Shown here: in pieces, positions 747 through 60,518 of the stretch
Layout of the letters: each line of letters starts with the position of its first letter
Position numbering within the stretch: position 1 is the stretch's first letter
Assembly (NCBI GenBank): GCA_030425295.1
Contig: JAUIAT010000006.1
Coordinates: 9,487-73,486, forward strand
Source of the DNA: Gammaproteobacteria bacterium
GTDB lineage: Bacteria > Pseudomonadota > Gammaproteobacteria > JAUIAT01
Length of the DNA: 64,000 nucleotides
Reading direction: 5' to 3'
Notes under the pieces: model-generated
Databases searched by the model: none
Told to the model about the DNA's origin: nothing
Seen by the model: only the letters and a program-made list of their open reading frames with translations
Program-made: the position numbers and the translations under genes

Positions 747-2381
747 ATGCATCTATACAAAGAAAAACATTTGAAACATATAGATATTAGGTATATTTTT
801 AAATTACTTAAAGATGCCAGGGAGGAAGGCATAAGCAATGGAGAAGACACTCCGCCTTATTCTTATTTTTACGATTTATATCTTATAGCTAATAATTTAC
901 GTTTAAGTAGTTCTATTCAGGTTGAAAAAGATTTATTATTCAATATTCTAATAGCTAGCATACCAAAAAAAGTAAAACATAAAAAACATATAAATCCGCT
1001 TAATGATTTATCTATATTAATGTCTAGTGTAAGTAGCATTAATTCACTTACAAATGAAAATTTTAAACAACTTCGTGTGTTAAGTAATGGAATAAAAATA
1101 AGCCCAATAAATAAATTACGCTTATTAAGCTTTGAAAGAACCCAAATTAACCTATTGCACGAATACATGTCTTTGTTTAAGCCAAACAAAATTATAGCTG
1201 CAGTTATTGGTTTGTGTGCTGGGGCTGGGATTTTTGCATTAAATGTTTTCATTGGTGCATTGATTTCTATAGTATGGTTTACATTTATTAACGGCTTCAT
1301 TATGGGGCTCATGGGCTTAATTTTTTCACCACCAGTTAATCCTTTGGTAACTGCACTGATGTGTGGTTTGATCTTCATAACTTTCGGGGAAATTTTTGCG
1401 GGGGTTATCATTAGTATGGGATTTGGAGCTCTCTTAGCTTGGGGCTCAGTACATATTGCATATGATTTAGCAATTGGCTTACTAAATGGCATAACAAAAA
1501 ATTTGATACGTATAAATTCTCCGCTTACGGCACTAATTAAATCATCTAAATATTATGTAAAACCTGCTTTTAGTGAACCACTATCTGAGGTTCATGATGA
1601 TTCAAATAAATATCATCTAAGTCTTTTATTAGCCAATGGTAAAAAGTTGCATCTCTCAAATAATCTTACTCAAAATGTATTAGATGACTTAGAAAATAAG
1701 CATCTCAGACAGGAAGTAATTAGCAAAATAGTTAATAGACTTGGTAGATTAGATATACATCCTGAGAATAAAACTAAAATACTCTTAAAAACATTTATTG
1801 TAACTAATAAATTATATATTAGAAAGTTTATAAAGGTTTTAAAGCAAAATTTATCTTCAGATGAATTTTCTGCTGATCGCATCAATACTTACCTTGGATG
1901 GTCAATTGAATGCATAATACATTATCCATCCGCCGAAAAAGAACTGAATAAGTTAGCTATTATGTACTTAAAAAAGGTTATTGACACGGTCGATAGTCCA
2001 GCTTCCTTTATTTATGATAATTTAGAATCTTCAGAGTTAACCCATCTGTTATTTTTTCTTCAAGGCAACTTTACTCCTGAAGAAAACCTCACACAAGATA
2101 TTATGTTTCATGGAGATGAACCTATTATATTTGAAGATAATGGTTATGAATGGGCAAATGAAGGAGAAACAAGAACGGACATAATAGAATATATAAAAAA
2201 ATTCGAAGAAAAAATAAAGACAGGCAAAGAAGAAGCACGAAAAAAGATTTTAGAGTATTTAATTAAAAAAATACCTAATAAACCAGACTTAAAACAAAGC
2301 TCAACCAAACCAATAAATAATGAGACGACGCCTTTATTAGACGGTTATTCAGATAGAAATATGGTTTTAACTTATACTTAA
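747..2381 (+). CDS. Hypothetical membrane protein of 544 aa. Central bilobed Gly/Ala-rich hydrophobic region (residues ~150-245), hydrophilic termini, E/K-rich C-terminal region. Effector-like.
   Basis: Long ORF. GxxxG-rich hydrophobic hairpins (IIAAVIGLCAGAGIFALNVFIGALISIVWF... and MGLIFSPPVNPLVTALMCGLIFITFGEIFAGVII). No recognisable enzymatic motif. Confidence 0.55.
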   Translation: MHLYKEKHLKHIDIRYIFKLLKDAREEGISNGEDTPPYSYFYDLYLIANNLRLSSSIQVEKDLLFNILIASIPKKVKHKKHINPLNDLSILMSSVSSINSLTNENFKQLRVLSNGIKISPINKLRLLSFERTQINLLHEYMSLFKPNKIIAAVIGLCAGAGIFALNVFIGALISIVWFTFINGFIMGLMGLIFSPPVNPLVTALMCGLIFITFGEIFAGVIISMGFGALLAWGSVHIAYDLAIGLLNGITKNLIRINSPLTALIKSSKYYVKPAFSEPLSEVHDDSNKYHLSLLLANGKKLHLSNNLTQNVLDDLENKHLRQEVISKIVNRLGRLDIHPENKTKILLKTFIVTNKLYIRKFIKVLKQNLSSDEFSADRINTYLGWSIECIIHYPSAEKELNKLAIMYLKKVIDTVDSPASFIYDNLESSELTHLLFFLQGNFTPEENLTQDIMFHGDEPIIFEDNGYEWANEGETRTDIIEYIKKFEEKIKTGKEEARKKILEYLIKKIPNKPDLKQSSTKPINNETTPLLDGYSDRNMVLTYT

Positions 2382-21127: not shown

Positions 21128-21376
21128 ATGGCCAATGAAAAAGAAATGCTAAAAAATATTGAGAATGATGCAATTGGTACCTTTCAAAAATTTAGAGAGC
21201 CAGCAGAACAGGTTAGCTTGGATATGGATAAGTGCTTCGAGTCATTATCAAAGATTCAAAAAGATCTTCTGACACAAACTGAGAATTTAAATACAATTAA
21301 ATTTAATCAACGTGACAATATCTCATTTGAAGATACGAAGACCCCAACCCAAGAACCATCCGCTCCAGCGGCTTAA
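21128..21376 (+). CDS. Hypothetical small protein (82 aa), probably co-transcribed with the 20304 gene.
   Basis: ORF 11 bp downstream of the preceding gene, preceded by GGGGG. Confidence 0.4.
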   Translation: MANEKEMLKNIENDAIGTFQKFREPAEQVSLDMDKCFESLSKIQKDLLTQTENLNTIKFNQRDNISFEDTKTPTQEPSAPAA

Positions 21377-58545: not shown

Positions 58546-59955
58546 ATGGCTAAAAAAGAGAAGTTAAAAAATCGTATTGAAAATGACAGTATGGGTGATA
58601 TTGAAGTTCCTGCTAATAAATACTGGGGGGCGCAAACTCAACGTTCATTAATCCACTTTAATATTGGTAACGACTTAATGCCACGCCCACTAATTCGTGC
58701 ATTTGGTATTCTAAAGAAATCTGCAGCACTTACAAATATGGAGCTTGGAAAGCTTGACTCTAAACGTGCTCAGCTAATTATTCAAGCAGCCGATGAAGTT
58801 ATTCAAGGCAAGCTTGACGACCACTTCCCTCTTCGTATCTGGCAAACCGGTAGTGGCACACAAACCAACATGAATACTAACGAAGTTATTGCTAATCGTG
58901 CCAATGAGATTGCTGGCAACCCCTGCGGGAGCAAAGACCCTGTTCACCCAAATGACCATGTAAATATGTCTCAATCATCAAATGACACATTCCCAACTGC
59001 TATGCATATTGCTGCCGCAGAAACAATTCATCATAACCTTCTACCTGAGATTAAAGACCTTAGGGAGAAACTAGATGACAAACGTCGCGAATTCAAAGAC
59101 ATAGTTAAAATTGGTAGAACGCACTTGCAAGATGCTGTACCTCTTACAATGGGGCAAGAGTTTTCAGGATATGTTAGTCAGCTTGATGACTGCATTTCTG
59201 CAATTGACAGCACTCTACCAAGCTTATATCAGTTAGCGCTTGGTGGGACGGCAGTAGGTACCGGCCTTAACAGCCACCCACAATTTGCAGAGAAAGGTGC
59301 GAAGCAAATTGCTAATTTAACTGAGCTGCCATTCTCATCGGCGCCAAATAAATTCGCCTCTCTTGCAGCTCATGATGCAATTGTCCTTTCAAGTGGAACA
59401 TTAAAGGTTCTAGCGTGCGCCTTAATGAAAATTGCAAATGACATAAGATGGTTAGGGTCTGGCCCTCGTTGTGGAATTAACGAACTTGAGCTACCTGCTA
59501 ATGAACCAGGCTCATCTATTATGCCAGGCAAAGTTAATCCGACTCAATCTGAAGCAATTACTATGGTTTGCTGCCAAGTTATGGGTAATGACGCTGCAAT
59601 TGGTTTTGCTGGATCTCAAGGCAACTTTGAACTTAACGTATTTAAACCAGTTATGATTTACAACCTACTTCATTCAGTTAAGTTACTAGGTGATAGCTGT
59701 CATAGCTTTGGCAAATACTGTGTTAAAGGACTAAAAGCTAATAAAAAACAAATTAATGAATATTTACATAACTCATTAATGCTAGTTACCGCCCTAAATC
59801 CTGTTTTAGGTTATGACAAAGCTGCTGAAATAGCGAAAAAAGCGTTCACAGATCACTCAAGCCTAAAAGAAGCCTGCTTAGAACTTGGTTACTTAAATGC
59901 AGAAGCATTTGATCAAGTTGTTAAACCTGAGGAAATGACTTCTCCGAAGGCTTAA
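58546..59955 (+). CDS. fumC: Fumarate hydratase class II.
   Basis: [16 protein letters not shown] signature. 469 aa. Confidence 0.95.
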
Positions 59956-60323
59956 TTAATAAGCTTATTAAAAATAAAAAAAGTGTTACCCCAGCAAGGC
60001 TGGGGTCCATCTAAGACCAAAATTAAACTACTGTTTAGCTAGCATAAAAACTCACTGCATTAACAGCTAACCTATACAAAAGCCTGCGTTTCCATCTTCA
60101 TATCACGTCTATTTTAATTCAATTCTCTAGATTTTATAAAAAGGAAAAACACAACCTAATGATCTATAATTGAACTATAAAAAAATGCAAAATAAACATT
60201 TTTTATTTGAGCGCTAAACAATATAAGAGAGTTTGATTAGCGCATTTATCAGCATGCTAGGAACTGGCTTTTATAAGCCAATTTACAGCATAAATTCACC
60301 TTACTAACAACTTGGAGAATAAA

Positions 60324-60518
60324 ATGAAAAAAAAAGATAAAAAAATATCAAAAATAGATAACTCCTCATTAACCAAGGTATCAGGGGGCGCTTACATAAA
60401 AGGCGTTACAGATAAAGAGTACCTTGAATTACAAAAAAAGCTTCTAAATAGTAAAGAAATACTTAGTATGAATGAATTTGATAAGTTGACTAGTTGGGAA
60501 AAGGATCAGGAAAAGTAG
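60324..60518 (+). CDS. Small peptide (64 aa) with a double-glycine-type leader (MKKKDKKISKIDNSSLTKVSGG) and a 42-aa hydrophilic helical core.
   Basis: GGAGAA RBS 6 nt before the ATG at 60324. The leader end LTKVSGG resembles colicin V / class II bacteriocin leaders (ELDSVSGG). Confidence 0.4.
   Translation: MKKKDKKISKIDNSSLTKVSGGAYIKGVTDKEYLELQKKLLNSKEILSMNEFDKLTSWEKDQEK

Follow-up and report, generated by a model that had tools for sequence, protein, structure and literature searches.

The small open reading frame (ORF) located between the convergent housekeeping genes fumC and sixA is very probably a real, translated gene, and the most likely reading, at about even odds, is that its product is a soluble orphan protein that would remain in the cytoplasm, neither processed nor exported. 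It is probably a lineage-restricted small-protein gene situated in an oversized, AT-rich spacer. The N-terminus of the product bears a measurable but weak resemblance to a double-glycine (GG) leader, and export of the peptide by the GG-leader route appears to be a legitimate lead that is not established.

The analysed window, i.e. the whole stretch of 64 kb, has a G+C content of 36.9%. The small ORF extends from an ATG at position 60324 to a TAG at 60516-60518 of the plus strand, and its 64-aa product is MKKKDKKISKIDNSSLTKVSGG followed by AYIKGVTDKEYLELQKKLLNSKEILSMNEFDKLTSWEKDQEK, with a full-length mass of 7.4 kDa. The features of the locus are as follows.

58546-59955 (+): fumC, class II fumarase, the upstream neighbour (Pfam Lyase_1 and FumaraseC_C)
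59956-60323 (no strand): upstream spacer of 368 bp, 30% G+C, with no convincing plus-strand sigma-70 promoter
60314-60319 (+): Shine-Dalgarno-like GGAGAA; 6 nt separate its GGAG core, and 4 nt the whole GGAGAA, from the ATG
60324-60518 (+): very probable orphan small-protein gene, 64 codons and a stop (from the sequence, ORF list, codon usage and gene calls)
60324-60389 (+): double-glycine-leader-like segment MKKKDKKISKIDNSSLTKVSGG, codons 1-22 (from a regular expression, position-matrix scans and a match to NF046113)
60390-60515 (+): hydrophilic core of 42 aa, codons 23-64 (from physicochemical calculation and an AlphaFold2 model)
60519-60766 (no strand): downstream spacer of 248 bp, 40% G+C, from the stop of the small ORF to that of sixA
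60767-61225 (-): sixA, SixA-type phosphohistidine phosphatase, the downstream neighbour, convergent with the small ORF

An earlier note on this DNA had described a 64-codon ORF with this product, a good ribosome-binding site in front of it and sixA as its convergent downstream neighbour. The sequence and the ORF list agree with this description, as the GGAG core is present 6 nt before the ATG and a gene for a SixA-type phosphatase occupies 60767-61225 of the minus strand.

The leader-like segment and a possible route of export

For peptides with GG leaders, recognition by the C39 peptidase domain involves a helix at positions -10 to -4, a hydrophobic knot at -7/-12 and a specificity contact at -4 (PMC6959990), and the Gly-Gly sits in the narrow active-site cleft of the domain, as seen by cryo-EM of PCAT1-CtA (PMC6959990). 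The cargo is recognised by neither the C39 domain nor the transporter, the leader alone being read, and no constraint is placed on the cargo (PMC6959990). Leaders of this class have Gly-Gly, Gly-Ala or Gly-Ser at -2/-1, at 15-30 residues from the initial Met. The putative leader of the small peptide comprises 22 residues and ends in G21-G22, with Val-4, Leu-7, Ile-12 and Ile-15 in register with the Gly-Gly, and all of the positions read by the C39 domain (-4, -7, -12 and Gly-Gly; PMC6959990) are satisfied. These are the determinants named by the PCAT1-CtA and LahT structures, and their presence favours export, as does the length of the segment, which falls inside the range of 15-24 residues of known leaders (PMC6959990, PMC12219008).

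The pattern h-x2-h-x4-h-x2-h-x-GG occurs three times in the six frames of the 64 kb, and only the occurrence in the small ORF is at the N-terminus of an ORF. In addition, a position matrix of 15 columns was derived from 31 classical leaders, which are an uncurated set, so that its results serve as a lead. The segment scores 12.1 bits with this matrix, with the optimum exactly at residue 22, and no other site in the six frames of the window scores as high, the next-best (10.7 bits) being internal to a 552-aa AMP-binding enzyme. In a six-frame translation of 1.3 Mb, a score of 12.1 bits is reached by two other positions out of 1.6 million and by none of 5,299 other ORF N-termini. The false-positive rate of the matrix is about 1e-6 per position and roughly 0.1 chance matches are expected per genome, so that a leader-like motif of such quality would appear by chance about once per ten genomes, and the motif is suggestive, not decisive. 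Genuine leaders, scored by leave-one-out, reached 20.8 +/- 5.9 bits, and 1 of the 31 fell below the small peptide, which places its score in the low tail of true leaders. The main deficit is that -8 and -9 are occupied by Ser and not by an acidic residue, which costs 3.5 bits. An acidic residue at -8/-9 is common in classical GG leaders, albeit not universal.

Among 18,950 NCBIfam models, only NF046113, a GG-leader bacteriocin-like family, was matched by the small peptide, with an E-value of 0.062 for the full peptide (13.3 bits) and 0.0062 for residues 1-26 (16.5 bits), far under the family cut-off of 40. Residues 1-23 of the query are aligned to positions 1-24 of the profile, covering the leader only, and the match is lost in nine composition-preserving shuffles and in a variant with the GG changed to AA. 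This dependence on residue order and on the Gly-Gly speaks for export; the score itself, so far under the cut-off, speaks against it. No NCBIfam family was found for the core alone, and the absence of a match between the small peptide and any bacteriocin or leader family of Pfam, including ComC, is a further point against export. Published signal patterns of microcins and pediocins have R or [KEQI] at -14, [IL] at -12 and G[GAS] at the end (PMC12219008); both patterns fail at -14, where the small peptide has Ser, and its Ile at -12 and GG end fit. The GG-leader resemblance proposed in the earlier note is borne out by the positions that the C39 domain reads, by the matrix score and by the sub-threshold NF046113 match with its controls.

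The core of 42 aa has a mass of 5,035 Da, a pI of 5.3 and a GRAVY of -1.0. It contains 17 charged residues out of 42, one Gly, one Ala and no Cys, and the C-terminus of the peptide is polar and acidic. Helices are predicted at residues 30-43 and 49-59 by single-sequence AlphaFold2, with a mean pLDDT of 64.5, which was too low for a fold search. By its composition, this hydrophilic and charged core is unlike those of known bacteriocins and microcins, in line with what the earlier note had said of typical bacteriocins. In addition, we know of no characterised GG-leader cargo with a similar composition, which counts against export. However, as the cargo is ignored by the C39 domain and the transporter (PMC6959990), a hydrophilic core is not disqualifying.

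The genomic context in the window does not support export. None of the ten window ORFs of at least 500 aa was identified as an ABC exporter in a Pfam scan, which accords with the earlier remark that no transporter adjoins the gene, and the only protein of the window with Walker-A and ABC-signature motifs in a six-frame motif scan is SufC (39241-40005), encoded in a suf operon 20 kb from the small ORF. No credible C39 motif was detected in the six frames of the 64-kb window, no membrane-fusion protein or immunity gene was found in the 64 kb, and no exporter or paralogous leader peptide is encoded in the 60 kb upstream and 3.5 kb downstream of the small ORF. Paralogous GG-leader peptides, which the earlier note had proposed to look for, were not found in the 64-kb window, the matrix scan having revealed no second leader-like small ORF in it. 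Downstream of the small ORF, no immunity-like ORF with a membrane span or a ribosome-binding site was detected, the only ORFs being of 27-28 aa and starting with GTG or TTG. A minus-strand gene, the C-terminal end of which occupies 63880-64000, crosses the right edge of the window, 3.5 kb away from the small ORF. The analysis covered the window and two short Logan contigs of the organism; the Logan contigs that carry the neighbouring genes measure 1.6-3.8 kb and are contained in the window, and the M23 peptidase product was absent from the records with both starts. As a rule, genes for GG-leader peptides are linked to those for secretion (PMC8872720), and in E. coli an ABC transporter with a peptidase domain (PCAT) was present somewhere in the assembly for 82% of microcin hits (PMC9746304). 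The substrate of HetC is not known and may be encoded elsewhere in the genome (PMC10986499), and this discussion of substrate genes lying away from their transporter is a point in favour of export.

The reading as an unexported protein draws on several of these observations, namely the lack of a C39/ABC exporter or a paralogous leader peptide in the window, the lack of a downstream immunity-gene candidate, the usual linkage of GG-leader genes to secretion genes (PMC8872720), a leader score under those of 30 of the 31 genuine leaders with Ser in place of the usual Glu/Asp at -8, a Ser at -14 that is outside the microcin and pediocin patterns (PMC12219008), and an extremely hydrophilic and charged core with a single Gly and no Cys. 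The G+C content of the ORF (29.7%), being that of the spacer and not that of genes, and its low GC1 and GC2 values point in the same direction. On the other hand, the segment is the top site of the window, none of the 5,299 other N-termini equals it, and its match to NF046113 depends on residue order and on the Gly-Gly, all of which argues against a coincidence. The lack of constraint on C39 cargo (PMC6959990), and the scope of the context scan, which covered 64 kb of the genome and would allow an unlinked exporter, also argue against a non-exported product.

As an intracellular protein, the product would consist of an unstructured N-terminal third with a strong positive charge (7 Lys among 22 residues; net charge +4.5) and a remainder forming an acidic two-helix module (residues 30-43 and 49-59; pI 5.3). 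A mini-protein with two such oppositely charged parts would act by binding a partner protein or a nucleic acid, a role that its composition alone suggests, and its build would be that of no enzyme, membrane-active peptide or toxin. The ...L-x-x-V-S-G-G end of the first part would then be a coincidental likeness to a GG leader, which would have arisen in a Lys/Ser/Ile-rich sequence encoded by DNA of 30% G+C.

The principal alternative, which is possible but less probable, is that the product is a GG-leader precursor exported by an unlinked PCAT. Residues about 13-19 would in that case form a short helix that places Leu-7 and Ile-12 in the C39 domain's hydrophobic groove, Val-4 would set the specificity, and Gly21-Gly22 would enter the active site, with the cut made after Gly22; outside the cell, the peptide would be a signal or a host-directed factor and not a pore-forming bacteriocin. 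Precedents for hydrophilic or larger cargo and for roles other than that of a bacteriocin are provided by CtA (66-aa cargo) and RaxX (60-aa precursor). For the weighing of this alternative, a prior of a few per thousand for an uncharacterised small gammaproteobacterial protein to be a PCAT substrate was combined with a likelihood ratio of roughly 10^3 for the motif, and after deductions for the lack of linkage and for an atypical cargo, export stays at the tentative level given above. The more specific proposal, namely that a probably host-associated, deep-branching gammaproteobacterium exports an acidic, helical and cysteine-free 42-residue peptide through a transporter encoded elsewhere, and that this peptide is a new secreted signalling or host-directed factor, is less likely still and has to be considered doubtful. 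Such a cargo would belong neither to the bacteriocins nor to the short pheromones, and would follow a logic like that of RaxX with an unrelated sequence. The secreted signalling peptide or factor suggested in the earlier note found no support beyond the leader resemblance, the 64 kb being devoid of an exporter, an immunity gene or a paralogue.

If the small peptide were a true substrate, GG-dependent secretion would come to include a hydrophilic cargo of 5 kDa from an unexplored lineage of gammaproteobacteria, and the locus would illustrate a substrate gene that is not linked to its transporter. Unlinked substrate genes hamper the discovery of substrates for transporters such as HetC (PMC10986499). 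If it is not a substrate, the gene adds one more lineage-specific small protein and serves mainly as a calibration point. As chance motifs are expected about once per ten genomes, the spotting of a motif is not enough when a transporter is missing.

A gene or a chance reading frame in the spacer

With 50 long genes of the window as a reference, the small ORF has a codon log-likelihood of 0.318 bits/codon in its own frame, and all five other frames give negative values. The corresponding means are 0.288 +/- 0.073 bits/codon for the window genes and 0.044 +/- 0.086 bits/codon for random spacer-like ORFs (n=868), none of which reaches 0.318. When compared with shuffles of its own base composition, with stop codons ignored, the small ORF was matched by 0.26% of the shuffles (p = 0.0026), and its CAI-like synonymous-codon index of 0.690 is close to that of genes (0.693 +/- 0.029). 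Unlisted ORFs that score equally high on codon usage include recognisable small genes (YggX-like, NifU-like and SufA-like), which are verified as such. A Shine-Dalgarno core at the same distance is present in front of 39% of the window genes vs 5% of all ATGs, and for GGAG as such the proportion of all window ATGs is only 1%. In addition, gene calling in an independent Logan assembly includes the small ORF, and its source in the protein collection is given as 'NCBI'. The gene-like codon usage, the statistics of the Shine-Dalgarno core and the gene calling together favour a real gene.

The possibility that the ORF arose by chance in non-coding DNA of the AT-rich, 811-bp spacer is accordingly regarded as improbable; if so, any transcription of the region would occur for other reasons, for instance as a minus-strand transcript ending at a terminator at 60006-59988. 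In random sequence with the dinucleotide make-up of the spacer, 0.24 ATG-initiated ORFs of at least 60 codons are expected per 811 bp, and the length of the ORF is therefore no evidence for a gene by itself. Its G+C content of 29.7% is similar to that of the surrounding spacer (30.4%), vs 37-40% for genes, with both GC1 and GC2 well under the gene averages. A promoter and terminator scan of the spacer revealed no convincing plus-strand promoter or terminator for the small ORF, no homologue was found in any collection searched, and the terminator on the minus strand of the spacer may point to antisense transcription. All these points are compatible with a chance ORF. Against it stand the codon usage, gene-like in one frame only and above that of all random ORFs, the correctly spaced Shine-Dalgarno core, and the verified small genes found at the same codon score.

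The small ORF contains two homopolymer runs, A9 and A7, at 60327-60345, in its first eight codons (ATG AAA AAA AAA GAT AAA AAA ATA). They are potential slippage sites, where the frame could be turned on or off.

A second orphan small gene was noted at 21128-21376 (+), flanked by a 270-aa ORF and an acetyl-CoA-synthetase-like gene. It encodes 82 aa, has gene-like codon usage (0.362 bits/codon) and a purine-rich, Shine-Dalgarno-like AAAGGGGG upstream, and matches no Pfam family at threshold.

The spacer between fumC and sixA (59956-60766, 811 bp) exceeds all others of the window by far; those between other convergent genes measure -24 to 247 bp. Even after the 64-codon gene is counted, 368 bp and 248 bp of it are left over. 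The downstream part (60519-60766) folds no better than its shuffles (z = +0.39 and -0.49) and has no Rfam match at E <= 1, and no repeats are common to the spacer and the rest of the window. A structured RNA or a mobile element was rejected as a content of the spacer on the basis of the missing Rfam match, the shuffle-like folds and the missing shared repeats. Close to fumC, a terminator-like hairpin at 60006-59988 (8 bp, 6 of them G-C) is followed by a U-run that extends to about 59970. The orientation of the hairpin suits transcripts of the minus strand, whereas the adjacent fumC is on the plus strand. A promoter-like TTTATA-N18-TAAAAT is located at 60140-60111 on the same minus strand, upstream of the terminator. 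These elements could delimit a minus-strand small RNA of roughly 130 nt, or the hairpin could end a long 3' UTR of sixA that would be antisense to the small ORF. The fold of the minus-strand element is not significant (z = -1.1) and it has no Rfam match.

Homologues, source lineage and possible secretion by another route

A word-indexed search of 5.8 billion clustered proteins returned only the query itself. With HMMER against 1.84 billion representatives, the query and a single further protein, P0053, were found. The latter is an Ig-like repeat protein of 1,837 aa, its hit is the sum of six weak repeat matches, and it was rejected as a spurious homologue. Back-translated scans of metagenome and viral contigs and tblastn against plasmids and phages retrieved nothing, and searches of Pfam, PHROGs and the PDB gave no match or noise. 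A leucine-rich-repeat fragment was considered on account of PDB matches to chondroadherin and designed repeat proteins (E = 0.017) and likewise rejected, since these matches sum repeats with individual E-values of at least 16.

A genome scan with FumC yielded at least 600 candidates, whose proteins are at most 70% identical and come from many phyla with no shared neighbourhood, and no synteny was detected in 80 FumC-anchored loci among the matches listed. The closest SixA homologue is 50% identical and is encoded in an unrelated context. Eight conserved proteins of the window are each the sole member of their 90%-identity cluster in a collection of about 15 billion proteins, and two further window ORFs have no exact sequence in the protein collection. 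The best match of MutS is 60% identical, to proteins derived from assemblies, and its named matches, at 57-59%, are to Endozoicomonas, Coxiella sp. and metagenome-assembled genomes of Legionellaceae. The source organism forms a lone and deep lineage within the gammaproteobacteria and is a singleton. As the whole organism is a singleton, the missing homologues of the small peptide carry little weight.

Three large ORFs of the window lack a significant Pfam domain, namely 747-2381 (+) of 544 aa, 13757-16537 (-) of 926 aa and 18061-19977 (-) of 638 aa, the sole traces being weak matches to a nucleotidyltransferase and to TPR. Large domain-less ORFs of this kind are typical for lineage-specific proteins of host-associated bacteria.

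Effectors of the Dot/Icm type, recognised by their C-terminus, are seen in Legionellales-like host-associated bacteria. That the small peptide is a substrate of such another route, for example a type IV effector read by its C-terminus, is highly improbable: the AT-rich, deep-branching source organism, whose conserved proteins share 58-60% identity with their counterparts in Coxiella-, Legionellaceae- and Endozoicomonas-like bacteria, the several large domain-less proteins in the window and the polar, acidic C-terminus of the peptide would fit, but no secretion-system gene was seen in the window, the last 20 residues have no clear Glu block or hydrophobic residue at -3/-4 of the kind found in the Dot/Icm signal, and 64 aa is unusually short for such an effector.

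Comparison with known systems

The literature searched contained no report linking Legionella-like bacteria with double-glycine peptides. The match to NF046113 (BLP_Lacticasei, the LSEI_2386 family of Lacticaseibacillus) is shared through the leader only, residues 1-23 of the query corresponding to positions 1-24 of a profile of 46; it differs in that the family belongs to a Gram-positive taxon, the core is unaligned and the score is 13-16 bits vs 40, and the match is one of leader resemblance, not of family membership. For competence and pheromone precursors of the ComC type, a GG leader is followed by a charged, non-bactericidal peptide, as may be the case in the small peptide. Their mature peptides are of about 17 aa and their genes adjoin those of a histidine kinase and a response regulator. 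The small peptide has neither a Pfam ComC match nor such neighbours.

Colicin V (MccV) and other class II microcins, exported by CvaB-type PCATs, are small ribosomal precursors like the small peptide, with a signal ending in ...L-x-x-V-S-G-G and hydrophobic residues at -4, -7 and -12. Their core is typically rich in Gly, Ser and Ala and partly hydrophobic, and a membrane immunity protein is encoded alongside (in part PMC12219008). By contrast, the small peptide, with a core of 5.0 kDa within the microcin range of 5-10 kDa, is charged and hydrophilic, its leader comprises 22 aa vs 15-18 in microcins, and Ser replaces Glu at -8. For instance, the signal of cvaC15 is MRTLTLNELDSVSGG (PMC12219008). 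The -14 position of the small peptide does not fit the published microcin signal patterns, and no genes for a PCAT, a membrane-fusion protein or an immunity protein are present near the small ORF.

CtA, the substrate of PCAT1 from Clostridium thermocellum, is recognised via -4, -7, -12 and GG (PMC6959990), and shares with the small peptide a leader of about 22-24 residues followed by an unrecognised cargo of tens of residues. It is encoded with its transporter, whereas the small peptide has no known transporter and no sequence similarity to CtA. RaxX, exported by RaxB in Xanthomonas oryzae, has a core that is tyrosine-sulfated and a gene that adjoins raxST-raxA-raxB; the window has no comparable genes, and the sequences are not similar. 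RaxX is likewise a Gram-negative precursor of roughly 60 aa, previously unannotated, with a GG leader (PMC8872720), and its cargo is hydrophilic, non-bactericidal and used in signalling (PMC8872720), as the cargo of the small peptide is hydrophilic too.
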